From Campylobacterota bacterium (GTDB lineage Bacteria > Campylobacterota > Campylobacteria > Campylobacterales > Sulfurimonadaceae), in contig JAYEMF010000077.1 of assembly GCA_034717975.1 (NCBI GenBank), positions 1 to 42,671 of the forward strand: 42,671 nucleotides of DNA. The letters run 5' to 3'. How positions within the stretch are numbered: position 1 is the stretch's first letter; each line of letters begins with the position of its first letter. Made by a program: the position numbers and the translations under genes. The notes beneath the pieces are model-generated. The model saw only the letters and a list, made by a program, of their open reading frames with translations, had not been told where the DNA came from and did no database searches. Below are positions 10,951 through 31,239 of the stretch, piece by piece.

Positions 10951-11283
10951 TTATTCTGCTTCTACGACTTCCATATCTTTGATTGACTCATTACTATGAG
11001 AGATTACTTTATCATGCAGGCGGCGAAGTGCTTTTAATGCACGGTCTATGGCAAGATCAATAGCAGCATCCAGAGCATCATCTTCTTGCTTGATAACGAT
11101 TGGCGAATTGTGGGCAATGTGCATATCAAACTCAACACTAATACCTTTTTTCTCTTTAGCCAAAATGACATTGATCGTCGTGATATCCAGATTATATTTT
11201 TTAAATTGCTCAATTGCACCTTCGATATGTGCTTTTGTGTGGTCGTTCAGCGTAATGTCTTTTGTACGAATTTGCGTATTCAT
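10951..11283 (-). CDS. Ribosome hibernation factor HPF/RaiA family (short form)
   Basis: Fold-typical pattern with DALDAAIDLAIDRALKALRRLHDK; AGGAG RBS. Confidence 0.85.
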   Translation of the reverse strand: MNTQIRTKDITLNDHTKAHIEGAIEQFKKYNLDITTINVILAKEKKGISVEFDMHIAHNSPIVIKQEDDALDAAIDLAIDRALKALRRLHDKVISHSNESIKDMEVVEAE

Positions 11284-11423
11284 TTCGTAACTCCTTTAAT
11301 CTATTTTATTACTTAAAATATAACACATCCTTACTGAATAATCTGCCACACATACCAGCTAATATTTAGGCCTATCCAGGTTTTGCGCTATAATTTCGCA
11401 ATTTTTTATAAGGCTATATCTAT

Positions 11424-12389
11424 ATGCGACTTTTAACCGGTATCCAACCCTCTGGAGATCTGCACATCGGAAATTACTTTGGCTCTATCAAACCGATGAT
11501 CGCCGAGCAGGAGAAGAACGAAATCTTTGCCTTTATTGCCAACTATCACGCCATGACGACTGTCAGTGACGGTAAACGTCTTGCTGAACTGACCATGCAG
11601 GCGGCAACTGACTTTTTGGCTTTGGGAATGGATCCCCAGCGCAGTACCTTCTGGGTACAGTCTGATGTCAAAGAGGTGCTTGAGCTCTATTGGATACTCT
11701 CATCTTTCACACCGATGGGACTGCTGGAACGTGCACACAGCTACAAAGACAAAACGGCTAAAGGGATTGCCGCCAATCACAGCCTTTTCTCTTACCCGGT
11801 CCTGATGGCGGCAGACATCCTGCTTTTCAACTCTCAAATTGTCCCTGTCGGCAAAGATCAGATCCAGCATGTTGAGATTGCCCGTGACATTGCCATCAAG
11901 TTCAATAATGCCTATGGTGAAATTTTCACCCTGCCCGAATACCGTGTAGATGAAAATGTTGCAACCGTACCGGGTGTCGATGGTCAGAAGATGAGTAAAA
12001 GTTATGGCAATACCATCAATATCTTCGGCGAAGAGAAGAAACAGCAAAAGGTGGTCAAAAAAATTATCACGGAATCTGTTCCTATGGAAGAGCCCAAAGA
12101 GTATGAGAACTGCAATATCTACAACATTGCCAAACTCTACCTGGATGAAGAGAAACAGATCGCTTTACAGGAACGCTATAAACGCGGCGGTGAAGGGCAT
12201 GGGCACTTCAAGCTCTATCTGGCTGAAGTGATCTGGGACTACTATACGCCTTATCGTGAAAAAAGGGCTTACTATGAAACGCATCAGGATGAAGTCCGTG
12301 ACATCTTGGCTCACGGTGCGGCCAAAGCACGTGAAAGTGCGATGGAAGTAATTGAAAAAGTACGAAGTGCTACGGGGATTAGTTATTAG
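11424..12389 (+). CDS. trpS: Tryptophanyl-tRNA synthetase
   Basis: TGIQPSGDLHIGNY (HIGH), YPVLMAADIL, VPVGKDQ, KMSKS. Confidence 0.98.
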   Translation: MRLLTGIQPSGDLHIGNYFGSIKPMIAEQEKNEIFAFIANYHAMTTVSDGKRLAELTMQAATDFLALGMDPQRSTFWVQSDVKEVLELYWILSSFTPMGLLERAHSYKDKTAKGIAANHSLFSYPVLMAADILLFNSQIVPVGKDQIQHVEIARDIAIKFNNAYGEIFTLPEYRVDENVATVPGVDGQKMSKSYGNTINIFGEEKKQQKVVKKIITESVPMEEPKEYENCNIYNIAKLYLDEEKQIALQERYKRGGEGHGHFKLYLAEVIWDYYTPYREKRAYYETHQDEVRDILAHGAAKARESAMEVIEKVRSATGISY

Positions 12390-12393
12390 GAGT

Positions 12394-12417
12394 TAAAAGC
12401 CCGTAGAAAGGCTTTTA
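12394..12417. terminator. Probable bidirectional terminator between trpS and the cytochrome gene
   Basis: TAAAAGCC-N8-GGCTTTTA hairpin between convergent genes. Confidence 0.6.
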
Positions 12418-12418
12418 C

Positions 12419-13609
12419 TTATGGACGAAAAACTCTTTTATCGATAAACATCTTCTTTGACCAAATCGGCTCTTTCAATTTTAAAATCGAATGTACCTCG
12501 TCATTCACTAAACGATAATACAGTTCAACATTTACAACACCTGTTCCCTCTACCCATGGAAACTTAACAGTTCGTGAACCATTGGCTGGAATCGAAATAT
12601 CTTTTGTCGCCTCAACCGCGAGATGCGGGATCGTCGGCTTACCCCGTTTACTAGTATATTTCTGTGTCATTGAAACAGTTTTGGAAGCTATGGATTTCTG
12701 ACCGGATTTGTAGGTTGCATCGATGATCAGTTCACGTGCTCCGAATCCCGATGGAAGATTGTGAGGATTGTCATTGTTGATCGTAACCAGCAGTTCATTG
12801 CCTTTTTTGGCCACACTCAGTGTCAAGGCCCCTTCCCACAGTGATGGCGTATGGGCACCGACAAAACCATGTTCGCGGACCATACGTTTTTTTGGCTTGT
12901 TGTTTTCGATCGCAAGGTTGCTGGCGACACCTGGTTTCTTCGGGCTCATATGACAATCTGCACACAGTTTTTCAGAATCACCCATCTCTTTTTCCATATT
13001 GGCAAAGAGTAAACCGCTTTGCGAACGATCATTCGCATGACAGACAAAACAGAGTTTATTGGACTCTTCTTTAAAGAAATCCCTGCTTTGTGTTTTATGA
13101 TAAGGTGATTTGGCATCATCAATCGGACCGCTCATTATTCCTACCGGATTCCAGTGCAGACGATGAGTCCCTCGCACAGTTTCATCAGCTTTTTCATCAA
13201 TCTTGTCAACACTGTGGCAGACCAGACAGTTGATCCCCTCATTCAGTGAATCACTTTCAAGTGCCTTATTGACTGCTGAACCTCCATCGAGTTTCATCGC
13301 CGCCATAATCTCATAATCCATACCTGTCTTTGTAACAGCAATACGTGGATTATGGCATGCAGCACACTCGATTTTAATGGCATTTTTTGATTTTCGGCTT
13401 TTTCGACCGACATAATCAATTGATTTACGGAGGTATTCGTTGTTGTTGTAATGTGATTTTGAGTGCCAAGAGTCTGACCACTCATGTACTTTCTCAGTAT
13501 GACACGGTTTACATTTTGCAGAGTCACTGTATTTGTTATTTAACTCAGGCGCAGCTTCACCAAACAATAATCCTGTCAACCAAACTACACCAAGAACAAT
13601 ACGCACCAT
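12419..13609 (-). CDS. Periplasmic pentaheme c-type cytochrome with heme-free C-terminal domain
   Basis: Five CxxCH motifs (CKPCH, CAACH, CLVCH, CFVCH, CADCH), Sec-type signal MVRIVLGVVWLTGLLFG, PHNLPSG motif; RBS GAGGGAG before ATG 13609. Confidence 0.9.
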   Translation of the reverse strand: MVRIVLGVVWLTGLLFGEAAPELNNKYSDSAKCKPCHTEKVHEWSDSWHSKSHYNNNEYLRKSIDYVGRKSRKSKNAIKIECAACHNPRIAVTKTGMDYEIMAAMKLDGGSAVNKALESDSLNEGINCLVCHSVDKIDEKADETVRGTHRLHWNPVGIMSGPIDDAKSPYHKTQSRDFFKEESNKLCFVCHANDRSQSGLLFANMEKEMGDSEKLCADCHMSPKKPGVASNLAIENNKPKKRMVREHGFVGAHTPSLWEGALTLSVAKKGNELLVTINNDNPHNLPSGFGARELIIDATYKSGQKSIASKTVSMTQKYTSKRGKPTIPHLAVEATKDISIPANGSRTVKFPWVEGTGVVNVELYYRLVNDEVHSILKLKEPIWSKKMFIDKRVFRP

Positions 13610-13759
13610 ACTTACTCCCTCAATACTATTTTGAAGATATGAATGATCAATACAGCCGGTTTCCTGACTACTAAAAATTCCATACAATTTAAATAAAATA
13701 TCATAGCATAATTCCTGCTTATCTAACTCAAAATTCTACTAATTCCTTGCCAACTATGC

Positions 13760-13773
13760 TTGATCTTCATCAA
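13760..13773 (+). promoter_or_regulatory. Crp/Fnr-family (Nss-type) binding box upstream of the NIT-like gene
   Basis: TTGATCTTCATCAA is a perfect TTGAT-N4-ATCAA; TATAAT at 13797-13802 lies 23 nt downstream (class II geometry). Confidence 0.75.
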
Positions 13774-13826
13774 AGAATAGTAATATGTATTTTAGTTATA
13801 ATAACCATCAAAAAAGGGAAATATTA

Positions 13827-14672
13827 ATGCGTACGATACTACTTTTGTTTATGCTGGTAATTATGAATGCCTCCGCTTTTTCACTGTTTGATAAAACAGA
13901 TGAAGAACAGATAGCGAAAATCGCCTATATTGATTCGCTGAAAGATCTTATAGTAGCCACCCAGAAAACAAGGGGTTTGACCAATAATTTCATGAATGGC
14001 AATGTTGTCGCTCAACTGCTCGTCTACCACGAACGCAGTGAGATGAAAAAAGCGCTTAGGGCCCTGAAACGTCAGAAAATGTCGGTTGACACAACAACGC
14101 AACAGAAGATCGTTGAACTTAAGAAAGCACTCAAGCAGCTCAATAAAAAAGCGTTTAAACAACCAAGCGGCCAAACCTTTCAGAATTATACGGAGATGAT
14201 CAATGAAATGCTTGCATTGGGCAGCAATATAGCCCAAAACTCATTTAGCAAAAACGAAAAGTTTACACAGCAGGCAACCGCATTGATGATGAGTGTCGTA
14301 CTTCCACTTACGGAGCAGATAGGTAAGACCCGGGGACTAGGTTCGGGGATCGTAGCACGTGGCCACTCACTGGATATTGAAGTACCTAAAATGACCGGTT
14401 TTGTAAACGAAGCGGAACGTTTATCAGGCAAGTTGGCTGCAGACACCAAATCCATCTATGCATCAAACAGCAAAAAGTATCCATCCGACCTCGTCAATAA
14501 AGTGGAAATGATCAACGCAGATATCCGTGCCTATGTAGCACTGACTCGGGAGAAGGTTATCGGTCAAAAAGAGATTAAGCTCGATCCAAACATCTATTTC
14601 GACCAGGGAACTGCAGCTATTTCAAAAGTATTGACAGTTTTCACCATCAACAAAACCGCCCTGACACAATAG
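13827..14672 (+). CDS. Exported stand-alone NIT-like (nitrate/nitrite-sensing domain) protein
   Basis: Signal peptide MRTILLLFMLVIMNASA; two helical repeats LIVATQKTRGLT and EQIGKTRGLGSG resembling the NIT Arg motifs; no TM or output domain. Start at 13827 after AAAGGG. Confidence 0.7.
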   Translation: MRTILLLFMLVIMNASAFSLFDKTDEEQIAKIAYIDSLKDLIVATQKTRGLTNNFMNGNVVAQLLVYHERSEMKKALRALKRQKMSVDTTTQQKIVELKKALKQLNKKAFKQPSGQTFQNYTEMINEMLALGSNIAQNSFSKNEKFTQQATALMMSVVLPLTEQIGKTRGLGSGIVARGHSLDIEVPKMTGFVNEAERLSGKLAADTKSIYASNSKKYPSDLVNKVEMINADIRAYVALTREKVIGQKEIKLDPNIYFDQGTAAISKVLTVFTINKTALTQ

Positions 14673-14686
14673 GCGGTAGGGCACTA

Positions 14687-15607
14687 TCAGCGCTGTCGGT
14701 CCAGCCAGACCATCAGCCCTTTTTGGGCATGCAGACGGTTCTCCGCCTCATCAAAGATTACGCTCTGACTTCCTTCAAGTACCTCTTCACTCACTTCCTG
14801 TCCACGGTAAGCCGGCAGACAGTGCAGAAAAATTGCATTGGCATCGGCACGGTTCATAATCATCCGGTCAACCATAAAGCCGTCAAAAGCTCTCAAGCGC
14901 TCCTCTTTCTCATCTTCCTGCCCCATAGAGGCCCAGGTGTCCGTTGTGACGACAGTAGCCCCTTCGACAGCAACATGCGGATCATTCGTGACAATGATCT
15001 TTGCACCACTGTGCCGTGCCAGCTCGTAGGCATCTTCCAGGACAGATGGATCAACTTCATAACCATGCGGTGTCGCAATACGCAGTTCAAACCCAAGTTT
15101 TGCCGCCAGCATCAGCCATGAATGCGTCATATTATTTCCATCACCGATATAGGCCACAATTTGGTTATCGGTATGTCCATGTTCAATCATCGTCATATAG
15201 TCGGCCAGGAGTTGTACAGGATGGTAGGAGTCGGTCAATCCATTAATGACCGGTACTTTTGAGTGAGCAGCAAACTCTTCAAGCATACTATGTGCAAAAG
15301 TACGGATCATGACCATATCGCACATCGATGAGATCACCCGTGCGGTATCTTTGACCGGCTCACCACGGCCAAGATGAATATCGCGATTAGAGAGAAAAAG
15401 GCCATGACCACCCAGTTGAAATATACCTGTTTCAAAACTTACACGAGTCCGTGTCGAGCTCTTCTCGAAGATCATCGCCAATGTTTTATTTGGCATATAG
15501 GGCTTGGTCTCACCGGCTTTAAGTCTCCGCTTGATAGTACGTCCAAGTTCAATAATCTCTAATATCTCTTCTTTAGAATAATCTTTAAGTGTTAAAAAGT
15601 GTCGCAA
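14687..15607 (-). CDS. argF: Ornithine carbamoyltransferase
   Basis: [36 protein letters not shown] start. Confidence 0.97.
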
Positions 15608-15656
15608 TACTGTTCCTAATATTCTATTTTATTTCTTTGGTTTAAATGATAACACA

Positions 15657-16625
15657 CTATCCCAATAGTTTTGCCACTTCTTTGGCGTGATAACTGATGA
15701 TTATGTCGGCGCCGGCACGTTTAAAGCCTACCATCGTCTCCATAACCACCCGATCGTAATCGATCAGATCATGCTGTCCGGCAAGCTTCAGCATGGCGTA
15801 TTCACCACTGACATTGTAAGCGGCTAGCGGCAGATGTGTCGTATCTTTGATCTCCCGTAAGATATCAAGGTAGGCCAAAGCCGGTTTGACCATCAAAATA
15901 TCAGCGCCCTGCGCCTCATCAGATAAACTTTCGTTAAGTGCTTCACGACGGTTTGCCGGATCCATCTGATAGCTGCTGCGATCTCCAAAACTCGGTACCG
16001 ATTCTGCCACATCACGAAAGGGTCCGTAATAGCCGCTAGAAAATTTGGTCGAGTAGCTCATGATCGGCAGATTTTCGTAACCGCCGCCATCGAGTGCATC
16101 ACGAAGGGTTGTGATAATACCATCCATCATGCCTGATGGTGCGATCAGGTCTGCACCTGCTTTGGCATGAACCAAAGCCTGCTTTGCGGAGAGCTTCAGG
16201 GTTGCATCATTGTCGACTGTCTCATGGACATGATCGATGATCCCGCAGTGGCCATGATCAGTGTATTCGCAAAAACAGAGATCCGTTGCCACGAACATAT
16301 CCGGATGGGCACGTTTTATCTCACGTACTGCCGTTGCAATGATCCCATGATCACATACAGCATCCGAGCCCACGGAATCTTTCGTCTCCGGGATACCGAA
16401 CAGGATGATCGAATAGATCCCCAAGGCCTTAAGCGCTTCACACTCTCTAATCGCCTCATCCAGACTCATCTGGTAGACACCCGGCATCGAAGCGACTTCC
16501 GTCTTGATCCCTTCTCCCGGACGGATAAAAAGCGGGTAGATGAAATCATTGACACTTACGGCCGTCTCTCGGACCAGTGCGCGAAGATGGGGATTGAGGC
16601 GTGTACGTCTGAAACGTTGAAACAT
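15657..16625 (-). CDS. hemB: Porphobilinogen synthase
   Basis: [41 protein letters not shown]. Confidence 0.98.
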
Positions 16626-17425: not shown

Positions 17426-19351
17426 GTGTTAAGCATTAGATCATTTCTCCAACTTCTACAAGAGTCGTTCCGCGATCTTCTTCCTATTATTCTTGTCATC
17501 CTCTTCTTCCAGCTGGCAATTATCCAGACGGTTCCCGAAGGATGGCTGGCAACCTCCATCGGTCTGGCTATTGTCGGTGTCGGTCTGGCGGTCTTCTTGC
17601 TTGGTCTTGAAGTCGGTATCTTCCCGGTCGGTGAGGGACTCGCGAGTGATTTTGCGCATAAAGGTTCCACTCCGCTTATCCTCGCTTTTGCCTTCCTCAT
17701 CGGTTTTGGTACGACAATCGCCGAACCGGCCCTCGTGGTCATTGCCGAAAAAGCGGCCAGTATAAGTTCCGGACGGATCGACGCGACCGTCCTGCGTATG
17801 GTCGTCGCTTTTTCTGTCGGTCTGGCTATTGTACTTGGCTCCTGGAGGATCATCCGGGGAACACCGATCCACTACTACATTATTGCCGGTTATATCTTGG
17901 TGGTAGCCACAACCGCCTATGCTCCCCATGAGATCGTCGGTCTTGCCTACGACCTGGGTGGCGTTACCACCTCAACCGTCACCGTACCGCTTGTAGCTGC
18001 TTTGGGTATTGGACTTGCAAGTACCATTAAAGGCCGCAGTCCCGTCCTCGATGGATTTGGACTCATTGCCTTTGCTTCCCTTACTCCGATGATCTTCGTT
18101 CAGATCTACGGTATCGCCGTATATGAGCTGGTTGAAGCGAAAGAAGTTGCAGCCGTTGTTGTTGAAGCTAAAAGCAGTAAAGCCTTTGACTTTTCAATTG
18201 CCAGCATTGCCAGTGGCCTGTTTGGTGTCGTCAAAGATGTCGTTCCTATCTTAGCCATTATTTTCTTTTTCCAGTACGCCATCTTACGTAAACCGATTAA
18301 GCAGCTCAAAACGGTACTGATCGGCTTTGCTCTTGTTATGGTCGGTCTGTATGCCTTCATCCTCGGTCTTGAGATGGGGCTCTTCTCGCTCGGTGAGACG
18401 ATGGCCTACCAACTCACCCAGGGTGACAGCAACTTTATCATCTATGCATTCGGTTTTGCCATCGGTTTTGCAACGACAATGGCTGAACCGTCACTCACTG
18501 CCATTGCCCGCAAAGCGAAAGAAATCAGTGATGACAAGATCAATGATTTCGCCCTGCGTATCTTTGTCGCTTTTGGTGTTGCTTTCGGGATCGCACTGGG
18601 TTCATTTCGTATTGTTGACGGCGGGCATATTGTCTACTACATCGTCACCGGCTATGTCATCGTTATTGCTCTTACTTTTATGGCACCAAAATATATCATC
18701 CCTATCGCTTACGACAGCGGCGGGGTAACCACCTCTACCGTTACGGTTCCGCTTGTTGCAGCACTTGGACTCGGACTGGCAACGAACATTGACGGGCGTG
18801 ATCCGCTGATCGACGGTTTCGGTCTTATTGCTTTTGCTTCACTCTTCCCGATGATTACGGTCATGCTCTACGGGGTGATCACCGACAAAATGGGTGTCAA
18901 AGGGCATCACGAACTCGAGCAGGAACATATGCTTGAACTGCGCCATGCACTTGAAGATGCGAACAACATGAACCTGACTACGATCAATGTAGATGGAACC
19001 GATGTCCGCCACTCCTTTATCATGCCGTTCTCATCCGTACATATCATCGTACCGGAGAGACGTAAAGAACGGGCCCTTCTTGCCGCCAAAGATGCCGGCG
19101 CAAGCGGTGTCACCATTACGCAGGCTCACGGTATGGGACTTGAAGAGATGGAGAACTTCTACAACCGTCTACAGCATGAAGATACCGATGTCGATCTGAT
19201 GTTCCTCTTGCCAACATCAAAAGTCGATGAACTGATCCAACATGTTATGCATGAACTTGACATTACGGGTGAAGGAGAAGGAATCGCCTTTGCCTATCCG
19301 GTTTCACACCTCAAGGGGCTCTCGCTCAAGAGCGAGCATCTGCAAAACTAG
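17426..19351 (+). CDS. DUF1538-type membrane protein: tandem duplicated membrane domain fused to a C-terminal PII-like domain
   Basis: Duplicated motifs (TIAEP/TMAEP; AYD(L/S)GGVTTSTVTVPLVAALG(I/L)GLA; DGFGLIAFASL) and a C-terminal GASGVTITQAHGMG...GEGIAFAYPV PII-like pattern; GTG start. Confidence 0.8.
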   Translation: MLSIRSFLQLLQESFRDLLPIILVILFFQLAIIQTVPEGWLATSIGLAIVGVGLAVFLLGLEVGIFPVGEGLASDFAHKGSTPLILAFAFLIGFGTTIAEPALVVIAEKAASISSGRIDATVLRMVVAFSVGLAIVLGSWRIIRGTPIHYYIIAGYILVVATTAYAPHEIVGLAYDLGGVTTSTVTVPLVAALGIGLASTIKGRSPVLDGFGLIAFASLTPMIFVQIYGIAVYELVEAKEVAAVVVEAKSSKAFDFSIASIASGLFGVVKDVVPILAIIFFFQYAILRKPIKQLKTVLIGFALVMVGLYAFILGLEMGLFSLGETMAYQLTQGDSNFIIYAFGFAIGFATTMAEPSLTAIARKAKEISDDKINDFALRIFVAFGVAFGIALGSFRIVDGGHIVYYIVTGYVIVIALTFMAPKYIIPIAYDSGGVTTSTVTVPLVAALGLGLATNIDGRDPLIDGFGLIAFASLFPMITVMLYGVITDKMGVKGHHELEQEHMLELRHALEDANNMNLTTINVDGTDVRHSFIMPFSSVHIIVPERRKERALLAAKDAGASGVTITQAHGMGLEEMENFYNRLQHEDTDVDLMFLLPTSKVDELIQHVMHELDITGEGEGIAFAYPVSHLKGLSLKSEHLQN

Positions 19352-22039: not shown

Positions 22040-23260
22040 ATGGAATTATCTATCTATCTGGCGCGTCAACCTATTTATGACCTTAAAGGCAATATAGCTG
22101 CCTACGAGCTTCTCTATCGCAATACCGAGAAGAACAGCACTTCTGTCAACAACCACATGCATGCAACTGCACGTGTATTGGTGAATGCCCTGAACTATAT
22201 CGGTCTGAACAATCTGACCAAAGGCCACATAGCTTTTATCAAAGTTGATCACACCACTATACTGGATGATATTATCTACTCCATAGCACCATCTCACTTT
22301 GTTCTGGAGATACTGGAGAGTTCTGTCATCTCATCCGAACTGCTTAAACGGATCGAGTATCTCCATACCAAAGGCTACCGTTTTGCACTCAACCATTTTC
22401 ATGACAGTCCGGAGTTCATACTGCAGTTCCAGTCTCTCTTTGACGCCATTGATTATGTCAAGATCGATATAAGCGAAACGGATGGAGCCGATGCGATCAT
22501 AACAAAACTCAAAGAACACAACCTCACATTTATTGCCGAAAAAATTGAAGATGAAACTCACTATGAAAACTCTAAAAAAGCCGGATGTGAACTCTTTCAG
22601 GGCTATCATCTTGCCAAACCGATTCTCTTTAAAAAAGAGCGTGTCGATCCCGACAGCTCTTTACTGATTGAGCTGATCTATCTTCTGCGGACCAATGCAC
22701 CGCTTGATGAGCTGCTTGAAAAGTTTAACAAGTCACCCTATCTTACGATCACTCTGCTCAAGTTCATCCATCTTCATGAAGGGCTGAAGCAAGATACCCT
22801 CGCATCCATTGAACAGGCACTAATTTTGATTGGTCGTGAGCGCCTGGGTAACTGGCTTGAGCTAATGGTCTATGCCTACGATAAAGAGAGTGAAGAAGAA
22901 GCATCGTTTACCAAACGTCTCAGTGAACAGGCACATCAGCGAGCTTCACTGATGGAAGAGCTGGCCAGACGTACCAAATCTTCTGACCGCTTCGCCCATG
23001 CCGCCTATATGACAGGCCTCCTCTCCATGGCGGAAGCGATGTTTCAAAATGGATACACCGATATTCTGAAACAGATCCATGTCGATAAAAATATTGCCGA
23101 TGCACTCGTGAAAAAAAATGGAGAACTGGGCCAGCTGCTCGGGCTCGCCATTGCCGTTGAGAGAAACGATATCCATACCATCAACGCTATTATCGGGCAG
23201 CTCTATATCTCCCAAAATGAGCTTAACGCCTGTATATTGGCTAGTTACCGTCGGAATTAG
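22040..23260 (+). CDS. EAL + HDOD domain signal-transduction protein (YuxH/PdeH-like)
   Basis: ARQPIYD, AYELLYR, IAEKIE, LFQGY, HDOD-like SIEQALILIG and AYMTGLLS. Confidence 0.88.
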   Translation: MELSIYLARQPIYDLKGNIAAYELLYRNTEKNSTSVNNHMHATARVLVNALNYIGLNNLTKGHIAFIKVDHTTILDDIIYSIAPSHFVLEILESSVISSELLKRIEYLHTKGYRFALNHFHDSPEFILQFQSLFDAIDYVKIDISETDGADAIITKLKEHNLTFIAEKIEDETHYENSKKAGCELFQGYHLAKPILFKKERVDPDSSLLIELIYLLRTNAPLDELLEKFNKSPYLTITLLKFIHLHEGLKQDTLASIEQALILIGRERLGNWLELMVYAYDKESEEEASFTKRLSEQAHQRASLMEELARRTKSSDRFAHAAYMTGLLSMAEAMFQNGYTDILKQIHVDKNIADALVKKNGELGQLLGLAIAVERNDIHTINAIIGQLYISQNELNACILASYRRN

Positions 23261-23631: not shown

Positions 23632-23701
23632 TAATGCTTGGAGTATCGGTAAACCGCTTTTCCCACCTTGGACAAGGGTTTATCCATACTTCGAAGCATT
23701 A
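23632..23701 (+). promoter_or_regulatory. Long hairpin in the predicted nosZ 5' leader
   Basis: TAATGCTT/AAGCATTA closing a ~30-bp imperfect stem, downstream of TATAAT at 23606-23611. Confidence 0.6.
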
Positions 23702-23763
23702 AACGGAGTGTGATAAACAAGTTACATTTGTTTAGTTTAAAACAAAATTTAAGGAGTCGATTT

Positions 23764-26358
23764 ATGAATAGCTTACATAAAATTTCATCCTTGCTCGTAG
23801 GAACTGCACTGACAGCTACTGTTGCATCAGCTGCCGGCGGTGCCCTCGAGAAAGTGATGAAAGAGCGTGGTCTGACAGAGAACGATGTCATCCGCGCGGC
23901 AAAAACCTATACACCGACGGGTGGTCGTGAAGACTACATCGTTTTCAGTTCAGGTGGTCAATCAGGTCAAATGATCGTTTACGGTGTACCGTCAATGAGA
24001 ATTTTAAAATACATCGCCGTCTTTACACCGGAGCCTTGGCAAGGGTACGGATACGATGTAGACAGTCTTAAGATCCTGCGTCAGGGTAATATCCGTGGCC
24101 GTGAGATCAACTGGGGTGATACACACCACCCGGCACTCTCTGAGAAAAATGGTAAATATGACGGTAAATGGCTGGTCATCAATGATAAAGCCAACCCGCG
24201 TGTTGCTGTTATCGATCTGGAAGACTTTGAGACAAAACAGATCGTAGTCAACCCGGTTTTTAAATCTGAGCACGGTGGGGCATTCTTTACACAAAACAGT
24301 GAGTATATTATCGAAGCATGTCAGTACGCTGCACCATTCGATAACAACTACCACCCGATCGAAGAGTACAAAGAGACCTACCGTGGTGGGGCTACAATGT
24401 GGAAATTCGATGCTAAAAAAGGTCGCATCAACGAGAAAGACTCTTTCACGATCGAGATGCCTCCATATATGCAAGACCTTAGTGATGCGGGTAAAAACGT
24501 TTCTCACGGCTGGGCATTCACCAACTCATTCAACTCTGAAATGTATACCGGTGGTATTGAAGTAGGCATGCCGCCGAATGAAGCAGGTATGTCTCGTAAC
24601 GATACCGACTTTTTGCACGTATATAACTGGAAAAAGCTGGCTAAGCTGGCAAAAGACAAGAAAAATGTAAAAATGTACAATGGCCACCCAGTCATTATGA
24701 TGGATACAGCCATTAAACACAATGCACTTTTCCTTATTCCTGAGCCAAAATCACCGCACGGTGTCGACGTTTCACCTGATGGTGAATACATCACAGTCTG
24801 TGGTAAGCTCGATACACACGCGTCTGTTTACAGTTTCTCTAAAATCATGAAACTGATCAAGAACAAAGACTTTGCAGGGAAAGATCCGTACGGGATTCCT
24901 ATCCTGGATATGAAAAAATCACTGCATGGTCAGGTTGAACTGGGTCTTGGGCCTTTACATAACCAGTACTCAAACGTAGATGGTGAGATCTATACTTCAC
25001 TGTACGTTGACTCACAGGTTGTTAAATGGAACTATAAGACTTTGAAAGTACTTGACAAAGTAAACGTCCACTACAACATCGGTCACCTTTGTGGTATGGA
25101 AGGTAAATCGGCAGATCCTCAGGGTGAGTACATCATCGCACTGAACAAACTGTCTATTGACCGCTTCAATCCGGTTGGTCCTTTGCATCCGCAAAATCAC
25201 CAGCTGATCGATATCCGCGGTAAAAAGATGGACCTTCTTGTCGATATGCCACTGCCACTGGGTGAACCTCACCAGGCCGTAGCGATCCGTGCAAGCAAAC
25301 TGCATCCGCATGTACGTTATAAAATGGGTACAAATACCAAAACCGGTAAGATTCATAAAGGTAAAACTCTTGCAGGCCAGGAGCGCATCGAGCGTAAAGG
25401 CAACAAAGTCACTGTCTATGCAACAATGGTTCGTTCACACATCAATCCTGAACGTATCACGGTTAACAAAGGTGACGAAGTTACTATGCACCTGACCAAC
25501 CTTGAACGTGCCCAGGATGAGACACACGGTTTCACTGTTGACCACTTTGATGTTCACGCTTCACTGGAGCCGGGTGAAACTTCTACTATCAGATTTATTG
25601 CAGACATCGAGGGTGTATTCCCTTACTACTGTACAGAGTTCTGTTCAGCGCTTCACCTTGAGATGATGGGTTACCTGATGGTTAAAGATCCGAACAAAAA
25701 ATATGTATCGGCTCAAAAACTCAAAATGAAAACAATGTCTGCTGCGGAGCTAAAAGCCGAATATGACAAAACTGTTGCCGTCAATGCTGCGACGGATGCT
25801 GTTATCCAGAGTGTTGTTGCCTTCTTGAAAGAGAACGGTTTTGACAAACATCCTACTGTTGCAGCTCTTGTAACGGATGCCTTTGACCAGTATGGCCAAA
25901 TCCCTGGAGAGAAGAAAAAATCTGATGCAGCGGTTAAAGCCGGTGACATGGAAAAAGCGATCCTGTTTGAAAACATGATCTGGCAGTACATGGTTAAGAC
26001 GGCAGATGTCGGTATCCGTGCAAAAGACCTGCTGGTCCTTAAAATCGCAACTAAACAGACACCTGCACAGGAACGCGGTCAACGTGCATTCGACGAAGGT
26101 GGATGTTCAGGTTGTCACGTTGTCGGTAAAGTCAGTTCCGGTCCGGACCTCACTGGTGTACTTCAACGTCATGAGAATGCTGAGAAATGGGTTTATGACT
26201 TTATCAAAGACCCTGAAAAAATGTATGGTGATCCATATGTTAAAGGGATGATCGACTACTTCAACCTCAAAATGCCTAACCAGCATATGACCAAAGAAGA
26301 GACAAAAGATATCATCGAGTACTTCAAATGGATTGACGAGAACGCCAATCTGTTCTAA
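23764..26358 (+). CDS. nosZ: Clade II cytochrome c nitrous oxide reductase (cNosZ)
   Basis: Sec-type signal without twin-arginine; CuZ His motifs DTHH, SEHG, SPHG, GPLH, NIGH, EPH; CuA motif CTEFCSALHLEM; C-terminal heme c CSGCH. Start MNSLHK at 23764 after AAGGAG. Confidence 0.98.
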   Translation: MNSLHKISSLLVGTALTATVASAAGGALEKVMKERGLTENDVIRAAKTYTPTGGREDYIVFSSGGQSGQMIVYGVPSMRILKYIAVFTPEPWQGYGYDVDSLKILRQGNIRGREINWGDTHHPALSEKNGKYDGKWLVINDKANPRVAVIDLEDFETKQIVVNPVFKSEHGGAFFTQNSEYIIEACQYAAPFDNNYHPIEEYKETYRGGATMWKFDAKKGRINEKDSFTIEMPPYMQDLSDAGKNVSHGWAFTNSFNSEMYTGGIEVGMPPNEAGMSRNDTDFLHVYNWKKLAKLAKDKKNVKMYNGHPVIMMDTAIKHNALFLIPEPKSPHGVDVSPDGEYITVCGKLDTHASVYSFSKIMKLIKNKDFAGKDPYGIPILDMKKSLHGQVELGLGPLHNQYSNVDGEIYTSLYVDSQVVKWNYKTLKVLDKVNVHYNIGHLCGMEGKSADPQGEYIIALNKLSIDRFNPVGPLHPQNHQLIDIRGKKMDLLVDMPLPLGEPHQAVAIRASKLHPHVRYKMGTNTKTGKIHKGKTLAGQERIERKGNKVTVYATMVRSHINPERITVNKGDEVTMHLTNLERAQDETHGFTVDHFDVHASLEPGETSTIRFIADIEGVFPYYCTEFCSALHLEMMGYLMVKDPNKKYVSAQKLKMKTMSAAELKAEYDKTVAVNAATDAVIQSVVAFLKENGFDKHPTVAALVTDAFDQYGQIPGEKKKSDAAVKAGDMEKAILFENMIWQYMVKTADVGIRAKDLLVLKIATKQTPAQERGQRAFDEGGCSGCHVVGKVSSGPDLTGVLQRHENAEKWVYDFIKDPEKMYGDPYVKGMIDYFNLKMPNQHMTKEETKDIIEYFKWIDENANLF

Positions 26359-26365
26359 TCAAACC

Positions 26366-26393
26366 AAACAGGAAAGGAGTCCCTTTCCTGTTT
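26366..26393 (+). terminator. Intrinsic terminator after nosZ
   Basis: AAACAGGAAAGG-AGTC-CCTTTCCTGTTT, perfect 12-bp stem. Confidence 0.8.
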
Positions 26394-26394
26394 A

Positions 26395-26408
26395 TTGACA
26401 AGCGTCAA
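26395..26408 (+). promoter_or_regulatory. Crp/Fnr (Nss)-type box upstream of nosB
   Basis: TTGACAAGCGTCAA (TTGA-N6-TCAA); candidate -10 TAAACT at 26431-26436, 22 nt downstream; second candidate TGTTATACT at 26471-26479. Confidence 0.6.
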
Positions 26409-26515
26409 TGACTTTCTTCACAAAATAACCTAAACTACTTAAAATTATAGATTTTATTTATCAAATTATCTGTTATACTTTTATAAATAAGATCTAATAA
26501 AAACAAGGCAGTACG

Positions 26516-27301
26516 ATGCATCCAAGTCTACTAAAATCAAAAATTTTCGCAACCATTGCGTTACTTATTCTGACCTTCTCATTTACCTTTCCGATGATTG
26601 CTTTTCATGGCACACTCAATGCGGTTCACGAAGAGAGAATCGATGATATCTCTCCGTTTACGGCAAGTGTATGGAACTTTTACAGCAAGGGAAGATACAT
26701 CAGTACCACTACTCCTGAACCAGCACATAATGACCTGATGGGGATGATCGAGCACTCAGCTGAACTGGGTGTGGCATCTTTGCCTATCTGGGCCGTCTCG
26801 CTTGAAGCTCCCAACTACCCGAAAGAGGCATTTCCGGAAGGGATCCCGGTCTTTTTTCACTTTGATGGTTACAGCGGGGAAGTTCACGAAATGAACACCA
26901 TCAACCACTACGTTGGTATGGACCCTATGTGGGTTGGTGGAACTATTGAGAGAGAGATCGGTATTTATGCTCTTCTGGCACTCACTCTGGGCATTATCTA
27001 TTTTATTGCCTACAACAAAAAGATATTGACCTATATTATGCTTGTACCGGTGTCGCTGCCTGTCCTGTTTATGGCTGACTACTCCTACTGGCTCTACTGG
27101 TTCGGACACAACCTGCATGACTGGGGTGCATTCAAGATCAAACCGTTTATGCCGACGGTCTTTGGCGATGGAAAAATTGCACAGTTTGTGACACACTCCT
27201 ACCCGACCATCGGTTTTTATATGATCCTCCTTATCTCACTCTTCGCGCTTTTAGCAGTTATGGCAAGAAAAAAAGCCAATGACGAGATGGCAGCAGAGTA
27301 G
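26516..27301 (+). CDS. nosB: NosB membrane protein
   Basis: LEAPNYP, EMNTINHYVGM, WLYWFGHNL, PFMPTVFGDGKIAQF; directly after a clade II nosZ. Confidence 0.9.
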   Translation: MHPSLLKSKIFATIALLILTFSFTFPMIAFHGTLNAVHEERIDDISPFTASVWNFYSKGRYISTTTPEPAHNDLMGMIEHSAELGVASLPIWAVSLEAPNYPKEAFPEGIPVFFHFDGYSGEVHEMNTINHYVGMDPMWVGGTIEREIGIYALLALTLGIIYFIAYNKKILTYIMLVPVSLPVLFMADYSYWLYWFGHNLHDWGAFKIKPFMPTVFGDGKIAQFVTHSYPTIGFYMILLISLFALLAVMARKKANDEMAAE

Positions 27302-27307
27302 CCTTTG

Positions 27308-28525
27308 ATGATTAGCCGTATCGCCTCGATCTTAGCACTGTTATTTGCACTTTCTGGTGCATCAGTGCTTCAAGAGGCGATCGACAGTGCCGAAGCGGGT
27401 TCGATTATTCGGCTCAATCCCGGTGTTTACAAAGGCAGTCTGCTAATTACCAAACCGATCACTATTGAAGGCAAATCAGAAGGTGTTGTCATCGATGGTG
27501 AAGGCGAAGGCACTGTCATTACCATCAAAAGCTCCTATGTCACTCTGAAAAACCTGACCATTACCAACAGCGGTGCCCAGCATGAAAAACTTGACTGCGG
27601 TATCAGTATCGGGGATGCCAAACACTGCGAAGTCTCCGACTGTACCATTACCGACTCACTTTTCGGCATCGATATGCAGATGACCAATAATTCAATCATC
27701 CAGAACAACTATATCACCTCCAAAGATTTTGATCTGGGACTGCGCGGCGACGGACTTCGCCTCTGGTACAGCAATGACAACCTTATTAAAGGCAACAGCC
27801 TGGTCAAATCAAGAGATATGGTTGTCTGGTATTCGCATGGCAATATTATCGAAGAGAACTACGGTGAGTACTGCCGCTACTCCCTGCACTTTATGTATGC
27901 AGGTAAGAACTATGTGCGCAACAACAGTTACAAGTATAACTCTGTCGGTATCTTCTTTATGTACAGTAAAGACACTATTGCCACCGGAAATATCGTTAAA
28001 AGTTCACTCGGTGCTACGGGAATGGGGATCGGGTTGAAAGATGTCTCTAACTTTACCATTGAAGAAAACACCGTTATCTACAATGCTCAGGGAATTTACA
28101 TCGACCGTTCCCCCTTTGAGCCAGATACTAACAACTTCATCAACCGTAACAAGATCCTCTATAACGCCGAAGCACTCCATTTTCACTCGCTGAGTGAAAA
28201 TAATATTATAAAATATAATACTTTATTGGGTAATATTGAGGACATTGTTAATGATTCGCGCGGGAGCAATACTCAGGACAATGAGTTCGAAGGCAACTAC
28301 TGGGACAGTTATGCCGGATTTGACCGCAATAATGACAATATCGGTGATACACCGCACAAAGTCTACCAGTATGCGGACAAACTCTGGCTCTATAACCCGG
28401 AAGTGAAGTTTTTTTATGGTTCACCGGTAATCTCACTGCTGAACTTTTTAGCAAAGTTGGCCCCGTTTAGCGAGCCGATTTTTTTACTTGAAGATGAAAA
28501 ACCCAGACTAAGGGAGAAAAGCTGA
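27308..28525 (+). CDS. nosD: NosD, CuZ maturation periplasmic protein
   Basis: Beta-helix repeats, RGDGLRLWYS, RYSLHFMY, GNYWDSY. Start may be TTG at 27305. Confidence 0.95.
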   Translation: MISRIASILALLFALSGASVLQEAIDSAEAGSIIRLNPGVYKGSLLITKPITIEGKSEGVVIDGEGEGTVITIKSSYVTLKNLTITNSGAQHEKLDCGISIGDAKHCEVSDCTITDSLFGIDMQMTNNSIIQNNYITSKDFDLGLRGDGLRLWYSNDNLIKGNSLVKSRDMVVWYSHGNIIEENYGEYCRYSLHFMYAGKNYVRNNSYKYNSVGIFFMYSKDTIATGNIVKSSLGATGMGIGLKDVSNFTIEENTVIYNAQGIYIDRSPFEPDTNNFINRNKILYNAEALHFHSLSENNIIKYNTLLGNIEDIVNDSRGSNTQDNEFEGNYWDSYAGFDRNNDNIGDTPHKVYQYADKLWLYNPEVKFFYGSPVISLLNFLAKLAPFSEPIFLLEDEKPRLREKS

Positions 28526-28527
28526 TC

Positions 28528-29265
28528 ATGGCAAAAACAGTAAATAAAGAGCGACGCGAATTTATCCAGTACTCGACACTCGGTATATTGGGAGCAGTAC
28601 TTGCAGGTGGAATCGTTGGCGTACCTTACCTCAATGCGGAAGAGACACGTTTACGGCCTCCGGGAGCGATTGATGAACACACCTTTCTTGGCCTCTGCAT
28701 AAAATGCGGTCAATGTGAGCAGGTCTGTCCTTATCACTCTATCCACCTTGCCGATATCTTTATGGGAGCTGGAGAGGGAACACCATACATCGATGCCCGT
28801 GAGCGTGCCTGTTATGCCTGTGAAGCCGTTCCATGCGTTCTGGCCTGTCCAAGCGGTGCACTTGACCATGCATGTGAAAAGGCGACCGATATTAGAATGG
28901 GGATAGCCGTACTTGAATTTCCAGATGCCTGTATCGCCATGACCAATACACCGGTTCCTAAAAAACACATCGATAGAATGCATACGCATCCGAATACCAG
29001 ACAACTTGAACAGGATGTCCTCGATAAAGTCGATGCCTTTGAGGGTGAGCAGTGTTCCATGTGTGCCGATATCTGTCCACTTCCGAATCCTCTGAGTGCC
29101 ATTGCGATGATCCCGGATGCCGCTGGCGGTAAACGTCCCGAGATCTATGACGGCTGTGTAGGATGCGGGGTCTGTGAAGAGGTTTGTCCTGTTGATATGC
29201 CGGCCATCGTTGTCAAGCCCAGACTGACTTATGAAGATTACTATGAAAAAGGGATACGTTCATGA
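28528..29265 (+). CDS. nosG: NosG (NapG-like) polyferredoxin
   Basis: Tat-like ERREFI, LRPPGA, CIKCGQCEQVCP, CVGCGVCEEVCP. Confidence 0.9.
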   Translation: MAKTVNKERREFIQYSTLGILGAVLAGGIVGVPYLNAEETRLRPPGAIDEHTFLGLCIKCGQCEQVCPYHSIHLADIFMGAGEGTPYIDARERACYACEAVPCVLACPSGALDHACEKATDIRMGIAVLEFPDACIAMTNTPVPKKHIDRMHTHPNTRQLEQDVLDKVDAFEGEQCSMCADICPLPNPLSAIAMIPDAAGGKRPEIYDGCVGCGVCEEVCPVDMPAIVVKPRLTYEDYYEKGIRS

Positions 29266-29837
29266 AACCTTACGCTTTAGCTCTCACGGCACTTCTGCTT
29301 CTGGCTGGATGCGGTGAAAAAAAAGAGGAAGAGAAACAAACTCAGGCTCCTGTAGCTGCTGTCACGGCCGGGGAAATTGAAGTTTCCAAAAACATCAAAG
29401 CCTACGAGCAGAAAGTAGAAGAGAAGGCTACCGATAAAACACAGAGTAAATCCTACTACTACGATTACAATGTAGAAGAGAAAAAAAGTGCTCCAGCAGA
29501 AAAACGAAGCGCCATTGACGCCAATCTACACGTGCGCAGTCCCTATGAACAGGTGGAGATCGAACTGTTGGTCCACAAACTGAGTAAAGATTTTATCGTC
29601 AGATGTTCTGCATGCCATAATGATTATGCCAACGGAATCATCGGACCTTCCCTGCTGGACAAGGATGCCAAGTTTATCTTCAATACGATAGCTGCCTATA
29701 AAACCGGCGAAAAAGAGAATGTCCTGATGAGTGCGCTGGTCAAGCAGATGAGTGATGAGCAGATACAAAAACTTGCCAACGAAATTGCCGAATTCAATAT
29801 AGAAATTAAAAAAATGAGATCAGGAAGAGGAAACTAA
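29262..29837 (+). CDS. nosC1: NosC1 monoheme cytochrome c (lipoprotein)
   Basis: Lipobox LLAGC, CSACH, distal Met in NVLM; position within the nos cluster. Confidence 0.85.
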   Translation: MKPYALALTALLLLAGCGEKKEEEKQTQAPVAAVTAGEIEVSKNIKAYEQKVEEKATDKTQSKSYYYDYNVEEKKSAPAEKRSAIDANLHVRSPYEQVEIELLVHKLSKDFIVRCSACHNDYANGIIGPSLLDKDAKFIFNTIAAYKTGEKENVLMSALVKQMSDEQIQKLANEIAEFNIEIKKMRSGRGN

Positions 29838-29839
29838 TA

Positions 29840-30316
29840 ATGAAAAATATTATTGTAGGAGCACTGACACTGCTAATTGTCGGGCTCATGGCGATGACCG
29901 CCATGCGGGGCGGAGCTTACCATGGCGGCGAGGTTAAAGTGATCAGTGATATGGCAGGCAAAATGGGGCAGAGCAGCCAGGCCACTGCACCGGTAGCTAA
30001 AGATGACCGTAAGATCGAACAGGACAAGCTGAAAGCCCTGAGAGACAAAGCCGGCAATATCGGCGGTTTCAAAGTATCCAAGAACTACAAAATGAAGTGT
30101 GCCTCATGTCACGGAATTAACGGCGAGGGGATCATCGGACCAAAACTTATCGGTTTGAAAAGCGATGTGGTTTACCAGCAACTCCTCGATTATAAAGCGG
30201 GACGAAAAGAGAATCTAGTCATGAAGGGACTGCTGCTCAAGCTCGATGAAGCAGCACTTAAAGAGTATGCCGATGAAATCGGAGAATTTGAAGCAAGAGC
30301 GAAAGCCGAACAATAA
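29840..30316 (+). CDS. nosC2: NosC2 monoheme cytochrome c
   Basis: N-terminal hydrophobic anchor, CASCH, GPKL, NLVM. Confidence 0.85.
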   Translation: MKNIIVGALTLLIVGLMAMTAMRGGAYHGGEVKVISDMAGKMGQSSQATAPVAKDDRKIEQDKLKALRDKAGNIGGFKVSKNYKMKCASCHGINGEGIIGPKLIGLKSDVVYQQLLDYKAGRKENLVMKGLLLKLDEAALKEYADEIGEFEARAKAEQ

Positions 30317-30333
30317 TATCTTTGGAGTAAACG

Positions 30334-31239
30334 ATGGATCAGTATAATTCCCGAACAACGATCAAAAACACCACGTTTTTATCGACCTTTACCACCAAAA
30401 CAAAAGAGGGCAAAACAAAGCTTAGCTATAGAACCAAACGGTGGATACTGGTCATCGCCATCCATCTCACCTTCTTTTTATCATTTGCGATCGATATTCA
30501 GGTCCTTGAGGGAACGCTCAGCGGTTCACGCTTTCTGGGCTTTCACCTTATCGATCCCCTCATGACAATGGAGACATTTTTAGCCACGCACCATCTTCAT
30601 ATCAATATGATTATAGGCACTGTGACCATCATCATCGTCTACCTGCTCATCGGCGGTCGCACCTACTGTGCATGGGTCTGTCCATACGGTCTGCTAAGCG
30701 AGATCGGTGAAAAATTCCATAACACTCTGGTCGATAAAAAGATCATCAAATCAAGAGCCTTCGACAACCGTGTACGCTATATCTTCTGGGCGATCTTTCT
30801 CATCCTTGCATTTACCAGCGGCTATATCATATTTGAGACCATCAATGTCGTTGGTATCATGAGTCGTGCCGTAGCCTACGGCTGGTCTGTATCTCTGATG
30901 TGGGTCATTGCCGTATTGGCTATTGAGACATTCTACTCACGCCGGGCCTGGTGCCGCTATGTCTGCCCTGTCGGAACAACATACGGGCTGATGGGACCGA
31001 TCAGTGCAACCCGAATTGAGTGGAACGACAACTGTGACCACTGTATGGTCTGCCATGATGTCTGTTTTGAGAACCAGGTACTTGAACTGACCAAAGCAAA
31101 ATATGATAAAGAGCGTGAAGAGAAAGGCATAAAAACTGAGTTCGTCACCGGAGCAGACTGCACACTCTGCGGGCGCTGTATCGATGTCTGCCATGAGGAT
31201 GCCCTCAACTTTGAATTCAGACTGAAGTCGATTGTATGA
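30334..31239 (+). CDS. nosH: NosH (NapH-like) membrane Fe-S quinol dehydrogenase subunit
   Basis: GGRTYCAWVCP, WCRYVCP, CDHCMVCHDVC, CTLCGRCIDVC. Confidence 0.9.
   Translation: MDQYNSRTTIKNTTFLSTFTTKTKEGKTKLSYRTKRWILVIAIHLTFFLSFAIDIQVLEGTLSGSRFLGFHLIDPLMTMETFLATHHLHINMIIGTVTIIIVYLLIGGRTYCAWVCPYGLLSEIGEKFHNTLVDKKIIKSRAFDNRVRYIFWAIFLILAFTSGYIIFETINVVGIMSRAVAYGWSVSLMWVIAVLAIETFYSRRAWCRYVCPVGTTYGLMGPISATRIEWNDNCDHCMVCHDVCFENQVLELTKAKYDKEREEKGIKTEFVTGADCTLCGRCIDVCHEDALNFEFRLKSIV

Follow-up and report, generated by a model that had tools for sequence, protein, structure and literature searches.

A gene at 13827-14672 of the window, by which we mean the whole stretch of 42,671 nucleotides analysed here, encodes an exported NIT domain that stands free of any signalling output. 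We confirmed that this free, exported domain is real, and our data support the conclusion that it represents a new form of a known sensor domain, one that is secreted, lacks an output and is associated with nitrate respiration. To our knowledge, NIT, a common extracellular sensor domain, has been studied only within receptors or NasR, and a literature search found no study of an exported stand-alone form. The gene and the features recognised within it are the following:

13827-14672, forward strand: stand-alone NIT-domain gene (open frame, Pfam NIT match, AlphaFold2 model; stop codon included), encoding a product of 281 amino acids (aa) that is predicted to be exported
13827-13877, forward strand: predicted Sec signal peptide, residues 1-17, ending ...NASA / FSLF, with the A-x-A site read by eye
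13959-13976, forward strand: motif 1, TQKTRG, residues 45-50, in helix 23-56, the counterpart of NasR QCERG (R50)
14322-14348, forward strand: motif 2, GKTRGLGSG, residues 166-174, in helix 145-178, the counterpart of NasR GQERA (R176)

The open frame of the NIT gene spans 13785-14672 on the forward strand, and ATG 13827 is its likely start, with AAGGGA seven bases ahead of it and the homologues beginning at the same point. The sole above-cut-off Pfam match of the product was PF08376 (NIT), which covered residues 40-267 and profile positions 1-226 of 239 (E 1.1e-11, 46 bits against a cut-off of 24.9), and an NCBIfam scan returned nothing meaningful. Windows of 19 residues with a Kyte-Doolittle mean above 1.5 begin only at residues 1-5, and past residue 25 the highest mean is 1.02; since the N-terminus is the sole hydrophobic segment, the protein has no membrane helix. 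The Pfam and hydrophobicity scans likewise revealed no HAMP, kinase, methyl-accepting chemotaxis protein (MCP) or ANTAR part, and the protein ends at the last NIT helix of the model, so that it does not share the architecture of MCP, kinase, GGDEF/EAL and ANTAR transducers, in which NIT is fused to transmembrane helices and an output. Among 29 members of the family, 27 lay over a crude threshold of N-terminal hydrophobicity. An earlier reading of this DNA, made from its letters only (the sequence-only reading), had proposed a signal peptide followed by a NIT-like domain without output, and this was borne out by the Pfam match, the hydrophobicity scan and the end of the model.

The AlphaFold2 model, built from 29 family members, has a mean pLDDT (predicted local distance difference test) of 93 and nine helices, namely a signal helix followed by eight helices in two groups of four (residues 23-56, 62-82, 89-111 and 114-138 in the first bundle, and 145-178, 185-213, 222-243 and 254-280 in the second); the predicted fold is thus entirely helical and, like that of NasR, consists of two four-helix bundles. 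When the model was compared to the PDB using Foldseek, two chains of NasR (4akk) came first (E 2.7e-4 and 4.2e-4, probability 1.00, template modelling score 0.60-0.61), at 13-14% identity in the fold alignment, and nothing besides NasR had an E below 0.05. The family profile, searched against PDB sequences, misses NasR (its best match, at E 0.09, is a designed protein), and since the relationship to NasR is seen by Pfam and fold only, it is a distant one. A Pfam search and a structural comparison with NasR had been suggested as checks on the NIT assignment, and both upheld it, NIT scoring above cut-off and NasR being the top fold match.

NasR carries the motifs QCERG and GQERA, readable from mutagenesis primers, and its R50A and R176A variants no longer respond to nitrate (PMC9581486), while E175 and R176 are named as residues of the predicted NasR pocket (PMC7496416). 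In the window protein the corresponding motifs are QKTRG (residues 46-50) and GKTRG (residues 166-170). The alignment of 29 members, in which identity to the window protein drops to 31%, holds 18 invariant columns, including T45-Q46-K47-T48-R49-G50, G166, R169, G172 and G174, and GKxRGxGSG in motif 2 is invariant or nearly so. R49 and R169 are invariant in 29/29, their correspondence to R50 and R176 of NasR being one of motif and helix position and not of residue superposition. The glutamate found ahead of each arginine in NasR has no equivalent, as position 48 is an invariant threonine (29/29) and position 168 is T, M, L, I or A. The sequence-only reading had both arginines kept and Glu replaced by Thr in both repeats, which is correct for the window protein; family-wide, the threonine is invariant in motif 1 only. 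Related genomes encode long NIT receptors (a HAMP-PAS-GGDEF-EAL protein) with QVHRG and GELRGLGSG, likewise without Glu, and so its loss is a trait of this NIT branch and not of the free form alone.

A word-indexed search returned 84 homologues of 258-321 aa, whose best local alignments to the query show 33-100% identity; in most of them a NIT domain had been precomputed, and those with a named source come from Campylobacterota. We then consider an exhaustive profile search over 1.84 billion representatives, which gave 1696 matches at E up to 0.001. All matches down to E 5e-44 were at most 338 aa long (mostly ~270-300 aa, together with shorter fragments), and the first long protein (645 aa) appeared at E 2e-42, followed by many of ~675 aa (about 645-680 aa). 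Of six long matches that were scanned, four turned out to be MCPs, with HAMP seen in two of these and NIT in two; the others were a HAMP-GAF histidine kinase and a PAS-NIT-HAMP-MCP protein. Because all the best matches are short and long forms enter only from E 2e-42, the free NIT form constitutes a coherent family and not a set of truncations; the sequence-only reading had allowed for homologues that were all longer, which is not the case for the 84 found. Judging by these similarities, the ~280-aa free NIT family of the Sulfurimonadaceae probably arose from the periplasmic sensor domains of NIT-HAMP-MCP chemoreceptors or is a sister group to them.

Across 201 evenly sampled genomes of the family Sulfurimonadaceae, strong stand-alone NIT matches were present in 46 genomes from 12 genera. 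An alignment-based query was used for the scan of NIT loci, a single-protein query having given one weak Bacteroidales match. From 107 proteins we dropped those below 230 or above 340 aa, matches cut by a contig end and identical duplicates, and a tree of the remaining 90 distinct NIT proteins split into two clades with support 100. Clade I contains the window protein, its relatives at loci L174 (85% identical) and L175 (56% identical), and the NIT genes found in moaC-mobA, nitrate-transporter-moaA and NIT-MORN-NIT contexts, and the trpS-linked genes fall in clade II. The context label 'ABC_MoaA' on this tree is noisy, having matched an unrelated ABC ATPase, and the true nitrate-transporter contexts are those of L018, L020, L029 and L052. 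Tandem NIT genes occur at L025, L026, L027, L035 and L073, several of them split by a small MORN-repeat protein (NIT-MORN-NIT), and at L017 a pair of NIT genes is enclosed by trpS and argF. One trpS-NIT-argF locus, L059, comes from a cultured Sulfurimonas, S. indica NW8N.

Nitrate reduction is a periplasmic process in Campylobacterota, and the distribution of the free NIT family follows that of NapA (TIGR01706), which was found in 41/46 NIT-bearing genomes versus 87/155 others (Fisher odds ratio 6.4, p 2e-5; stratified by genus, Mantel-Haenszel odds ratio 9.6, p 3e-5), p values that overstate the evidence because the genomes are related to one another. Within genera, NIT-bearing genomes had NapA in 17/17 cases versus 26/37 of those without NIT in g2, in 8/8 versus 2/8 in g8, and in 4/5 versus 3/12 in g7. 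The neighbours of NIT genes point in the same direction. At the four nitrate-transporter loci, genes for an NMT1_2 binding protein, a permease and an ATPase are followed by NIT and then by moaA, the permease scoring 238.7 with TIGR01183 (nitrate ABC permease; cut-off 209) and the ATPase 341.6 with TIGR01184 (cut-off 291.8). At six loci NIT lies between moaC and mobA, and at eleven clade II loci it is beside aroC and a DUF6781-DUF493-moaC-mobA string; genes of the molybdenum cofactor are also needed for NapA itself. Several clade I loci further contain, a few genes from moaC-NIT-mobA, soxC (sulfite dehydrogenase, TIGR04555, 588 bits) and a dihaem cytochrome c (L021, 505-3080; L015, L023, L046 and L176), in some loci as soxCD. 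As for the ligand, two chemoreceptors, PscN and Dd15070, have NIT ligand-binding domains whose KD values for nitrate and nitrite are micromolar, as tabulated in PMC12358799.

The regulatory region of the gene offers another line of evidence. It is a 217-bp spacer shared with a divergently transcribed gene for a pentahaem cytochrome c, and the following features were found in it:

13760-13773, palindromic: perfect Crp/Fnr (Nss/Dnr)-type box TTGATCTTCATCAA, within the shared 217-bp spacer
13797-13802, forward strand: TATAAT -10 hexamer of the NIT gene, read from the sequence, which places the box centre ~42.5 bp before the inferred transcription start
13733-13738, reverse strand: possible TAGAAT -10 hexamer of the cytochrome gene, read from the sequence, which places the box centre ~40.5 bp before the inferred start

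According to two studies, the Nss consensus in Campylobacterota is TTGA-N6-TCAA (PMC11539149), and NssA, NssB and NssC of Wolinella respond to nitrate, NO and N2O (PMC6682613). The box at 13760-13773 is the only perfect TTGAT-N4-ATCAA of the window. In the window genome, that is, the genome to which the window belongs, 9/19 perfect boxes are intergenic and at most 300 bp upstream of a gene start, compared to 6/111 for six composition-matched control patterns. Their targets include nirDL, a 389-aa paralogue of the pentahaem cytochrome (followed by norC-like, norB-like, nirS and nirJ-like radical-SAM genes), a YgbA_NO-family gene, a hemerythrin/cupin pair, a small cytochrome c and a PAS protein. 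A further perfect box lies upstream of a Crp-type regulator gene, which shares it with a divergent open reading frame (ORF) of 115 aa; another Crp-type helix-turn-helix gene is found just upstream of napA, and three such Crp-type matches over cut-off were detected in this genome, on contigs C43, C61 and C104. The NIT gene would therewith qualify, on sequence grounds, as a putative member of an Nss/Dnr-type regulon, possessing the box at an inferred class II distance, in common with denitrification genes and in a genome that encodes candidate regulators.

Across the family, a box matching at least 9/10 positions stands ahead of 9/86 NIT genes, versus 2.5% of shuffles and 1.5% of random windows, and these boxes include all three divergent NIT-cytochrome loci and moaC-NIT spacers. 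Ahead of the cytochrome in argF-cytochrome loci it was found in 2/79, the background level. As it is enriched before NIT and at background before the argF-linked cytochrome, the box goes with NIT rather than with the cytochrome. Nevertheless, co-regulation of the two genes through the one box is plausible for the window genome, and the box may be shared by both genes there and at the two other divergent loci. Alignment of the three divergent spacers showed no conservation beyond the box, and a consensus promoter and terminator scan of 12300-14800 gave no more sites than shuffled sequence. No box with at most one mismatch precedes the nosZ of the window. A one-mismatch box, TTGATATAAATCAT, is located at 34711-34724, just after the nos cluster, between a 152-aa ORF (34219-34677, reverse strand) and a TonB-dependent receptor gene (34869-36929).

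Taking these observations together, we propose that the NIT protein is a Sec-exported single NIT domain which binds nitrate and/or nitrite in the periplasm, is co-induced with the denitrification genes and serves as an accessory to a membrane receptor, an explanation to which we give about an even chance of being right and in which the ligand, the Nss-like regulation and the receptor partner are what we infer. A Crp/Fnr-family (Nss/Dnr-like) regulator would bind TTGATCTTCATCAA ~42 bp before the promoter start and switch the NIT gene on along with the denitrification genes; the secreted protein would then use its two NasR-type arginines to capture nitrate and/or nitrite in the periplasm and, once loaded, would act on a membrane receptor encoded elsewhere or, less likely, would serve as an anion buffer. 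The pentahaem cytochrome is a separate and far more widespread gene, normally positioned after argF.

Several observations weigh against this proposal. In PA4520 the NIT domain binds neither of the two proposed anions (PMC6381276), and so the ligand cannot be assumed from the fold, all the more as the NasR glutamates are missing from our protein. Five NIT-bearing genomes have no NapA that we could see, of which two are 65% and 77% complete and three are 91-99% complete, and the relatedness of the genomes tempers the association as a whole. The transcription start behind the box geometry is a prediction from sequence; the total of 19 boxes in the genome is not above that of composition-matched controls (8-25), their location being the only enriched property; and most clade II NIT genes, those downstream of trpS, have no good box. 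Finally, no receptor partner was found, the window genome having no NIT-type receptor at E 1e-10 or better. In a bolder version, nitrate-respiring Sulfurimonadaceae would have in the free NIT protein their missing periplasmic detector of nitrate/nitrite, which would be induced by an Nss-type regulator, bind the anion in the periplasm, where Nap works, and dock on a sensor-less membrane receptor (an MCP or kinase) that drives taxis or expression; beside the cytochrome, it would form a co-regulated sensing-redox pair. If true, this would amount to binding-protein-dependent sensing based on the NIT fold, and in our estimate it is a long shot.

The sequence-only reading had placed the NIT gene and the five-CxxCH cytochrome gene 217 bp apart, in divergent orientation, between trpS and argF, and the coordinates agree with it (start codons separated by 13610-13826, 217 bp):

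11424-12389, forward strand: trpS (Pfam tRNA-synt_1b), the left border of a conserved slot
12419-13609, reverse strand: pentahaem cytochrome c gene, 396 aa from MVRIVLG, periplasmic, with a C-terminal Ig-like domain, of the MccSep / c552 type without Sec/Cys (selenocysteine/cysteine)
14687-15607, reverse strand: argF (ornithine carbamoyltransferase; Pfam OTCace_N, OTCace), forming the right border of the slot; at other loci it immediately precedes the cytochrome
13543-14685, no strand: stretch without nucleotide counterpart in two genomes of the same genus, comprising the NIT gene, the spacer and the 5' end of the cytochrome gene

We assessed how general this arrangement is using two sets of loci, ascertained by NIT and by the cytochrome, respectively. 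In 80 NIT loci from species-representative genomes, trpS adjoins NIT in 37 and argF in 40; a cytochrome homologue (49-58% identity) is present in 12/80, located between NIT and argF and convergent with NIT, and 25/37 trpS-NIT-argF loci have no cytochrome. Of the 80 cytochrome loci (L094-L173), 76 have argF immediately upstream in the same orientation, and of the other four, three are cut by a contig end; trpS directly follows the cytochrome in 36, and NIT is present in 6. The argF-cytochrome linkage was seen in Sulfurimonadaceae and Sulfuricurvum, and the gap is below 60 bp in 55/76 loci, which suggests co-transcription of the cytochrome with the arginine-biosynthesis gene. Among the 201 genomes, 46 have NIT, 123 the cytochrome and 25 both, compared to 28.1 expected (odds ratio 0.69, p 0.30; genus-stratified 0.56), and in 9 of these 25 the genes are adjacent, six times convergent, twice divergent (the window genome and G054) and once co-directional. 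For the 90 distinct NIT proteins the corresponding numbers are 14 convergent, 3 divergent and 1 co-directional. L175 shares the divergent layout of the window, as does G054, the latter with a clade II NIT gene; as adjacent NIT genes fall in both clades, the adjacency arose more than once.

All instances of NIT beside the cytochrome are in the trpS-argF slot, which either gene can also occupy without the other, and on our explanation the two genes of the window are neighbours because both occupy this slot. Aligning window positions 11000-16000 by blastn to two genomes of the same genus (G001 and G002) recovered only 11006-13542 and 14686-15996; both genomes have argF, a gap of ~180-190 bp and the cytochrome (then trpS where the contig continues), without NIT. 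A complex prediction for NIT 22-281 and cytochrome 20-396, both entered as alignments, scored 0.00, a result that weighs neither way. The proposal of the sequence-only reading that the pair forms a module thus found no support across the family, the cytochrome tracking argF (76/80) with NIT beside it in 6/80 and co-occurrence not exceeding chance; linkage to the cytochrome is not conserved, and where the genes are adjacent they are usually convergent and not head-to-head. Its broader idea of a periplasmic N-oxyanion module fared better in one part, the link to N-oxide respiration (NapA, transporter and molybdenum-cofactor neighbours, box), than in the other, the conserved pairing with the cytochrome. 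Our reading is that NIT and cytochrome share residence in a slot and that a functional pair is a minority possibility. In L070 (4031-5914) and at the same position in L074, a gene for a 628-aa MCP is located between trpS and NIT in the same orientation. Its signalling domain is the sole part recognised, the N-terminal ~440 aa having no domain assignment, and it is a possible receptor partner of the NIT protein.

The cytochrome itself contains five CxxCH motifs (C33, C82, C128, C187 and C216), all invariant in its family. The family profile matched MccSep (9wt8, E 1.2e-15) and the c552 of T. tepidum (5ze8, E 5e-11), and the model (pLDDT 77), in which the beta-rich C-terminus (residues ~260-396) exceeds 90 in most 10-residue blocks, matched 5ze8 over its whole length (E 2.4e-20, TM 0.64). 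It is therefore modelled as five CxxCH haems with a C-terminal Ig-like domain, as in the MccSep/ExtKL family, at 52.5 bits against the NCBIfam NF040886 (ExtKL) cut-off of 250. MccSep is a polysulfide-reducing selenoprotein of Geobacter whose family is defined, in the available part of its description, by Sec/Cys at U325 and a Cys239 ligand (bioRxiv 10.1101/2025.11.18.688581). In our cytochrome Phe289, within an invariant NPHN-x-P-x-GFG, aligns with Sec325, and no Cys occurs outside CxxCH (all 10 invariant Cys are in haem motifs), the distal haem 2 ligand Cys239 being absent. With Phe at the U325 position and no extra Cys, the cytochrome family fails the defining Sec/Cys features of MccSep as given there; the window cytochrome may be an electron carrier or an enzyme.

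The 389-aa paralogue (24% identity to the window cytochrome, E 1e-24) belongs to a denitrification cluster of the window genome, G000 (contig C149, 32190-41500; L217, 8190-17500). The order of genes there is nirDL, a 128-aa ORF, the paralogue, a 111-aa ORF, norC-like cytochrome c, norB-like COX1, nirS (cd1), a cytochrome c and a nirJ-like radical-SAM gene, and the cluster has two perfect boxes, TTGATACATATCAA, and one with a single mismatch. The window also contains a nitrous-oxide reductase cluster of the clade II type at 23668-33896, 9 kb downstream of NIT, with NosZ (896 aa; nos_propeller, cupredoxin and C-terminal cytochrome c), NosD, two 4Fe-4S proteins, an ABC ATPase, an ABC-2 permease and NosL, which is consistent with a denitrifying host. 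Directly upstream of nosZ, at 22040-23257, a 406-aa protein with a partial EAL match is encoded, and at 17426-19351 a 641-aa membrane protein with two DUF1538 halves and a C-terminal P-II-like domain.

Three other explanations of the NIT protein were weighed against the one proposed above. It could be the decaying and functionless remnant of a NIT chemoreceptor or kinase, a suspicion raised by its nearest longer relatives, which are NIT-HAMP-MCP proteins of ~675 aa, and by the absence of the gene from two genomes of the same genus; yet the family data contradict it, with 84 homologues of the same length and with intact frames, 18 invariant columns kept while identity falls to 31%, a signal peptide of its own, an end exactly at the last NIT helix and an occurrence in 46/201 genomes of 12 genera, and we find it scarcely credible. 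A partnership in which NIT binds an N-oxyanion and presents it to, or regulates, a reducing pentahaem cytochrome has more in its favour, since the genes are neighbours in three layouts (14 convergent, 3 divergent and 1 co-directional among 90 NIT proteins) and with NIT genes of both deep clades (support 100), all three divergent spacers have a box of at least 9/10, and in the window genome this cytochrome type is linked to denitrification by the paralogue, which lies in the nir-nor cluster and has the same box ahead of it. It is set against the counts, however: 25 genomes with both genes versus 28.1 expected and only 9/25 adjacent, a cytochrome that follows argF in 76/80 loci with NIT beside it in 6/80, 25/37 trpS-NIT-argF loci without cytochrome, same-genus genomes that keep the cytochrome without NIT, and a cytochrome box at the background of 2/79. 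We consider such a partnership quite unlikely.

The remaining alternative concerns the ligand, which might be another oxyanion (such as molybdate, tungstate, sulfite, thiosulfate or polysulfide) held by the two arginines and the Gly-rich RGLGSG loop. Both NasR glutamates are replaced, with an invariant threonine in motif 1; moaA, moaC and mobA are neighbours in relatives, and soxCD in some loci. Molybdenum-cofactor genes serve NapA too, however, the NapA association holds within genera, the neighbouring transporter scores as nitrate-type and not molybdate-type, and the box is common to nir/nor and NO-stress genes. The authors of the PA4520 study suggested NIT subfamilies with other ligands, that domain binding neither nitrate nor nitrite (PMC6381276), and the neighbouring cytochrome is related to a polysulfide reductase, MccSep (bioRxiv 10.1101/2025.11.18.688581). 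On balance, a different oxyanion seems to us unlikely, and nitrate and/or nitrite remain the ligands we propose.

A secreted NIT protein that tracks NapA and has an Nss-type box is an easily purified candidate for periplasmic nitrate/nitrite perception in abundant sulfur-oxidising denitrifiers. Campylobacterota control their nitrate pathway by way of Nss proteins, cytoplasmic regulators of the Crp/Fnr type, and the accessible parts of the two Nss studies offered no explanation of the route by which the nitrate signal reaches Nss (PMC11539149, PMC6682613). In addition, the idea of a conserved NIT-cytochrome module is corrected at the family level, and a widespread branch of MccSep/c552 pentahaem cytochromes without Sec/Cys is flagged, positioned behind argF and with a paralogue inside a nir-nor cluster.

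Compared to known systems, the putative regulon resembles the Nss/Dnr regulons (NssA/NssB/NssC of Wolinella; Nitrosophilus) in its consensus, in a Crp-type gene beside nap and in its denitrification targets, and differs from them in the NIT gene, no stand-alone NIT protein being named as a member in the available parts of PMC11539149 and PMC6682613. The cytochrome shares with MccSep/ExtKL (Geobacter, 9WT8) and c552 (Thermochromatium tepidum, 5ZE8) five CxxCH haems followed by an Ig-like beta-sandwich, and unlike MccSep it has neither the catalytic Sec325 nor the Cys239 haem ligand and scores below the NCBIfam cut-off. The NIT protein belongs to the same Pfam family as NasR (Klebsiella oxytoca, 4AKK), with two helical bundles and an Arg motif in the first long helix of each, whereas NasR is cytoplasmic and fused to an RNA-binding ANTAR output, and the window protein is exported, has no output and lacks the Glu. 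With PscN (Pectobacterium atrosepticum), Dd15070 (Dickeya dadantii) and PA4520 (Pseudomonas aeruginosa) it has in common an extracytoplasmic NIT domain, which in those receptors is tethered between two membrane helices and here is free. In LuxP-LuxQ, TorT-TorS and ChvE-VirA, periplasmic binding proteins signal through a membrane sensor; LuxP, TorT and ChvE adopt the fold of periplasmic binding proteins and as a rule have their sensor encoded next to them, unlike our protein, which has the NIT fold and, except for the MCP of L070 and L074, no linked sensor, but their logic, that of a soluble binder without output acting on a separate receptor, is the one we propose for the free NIT protein.

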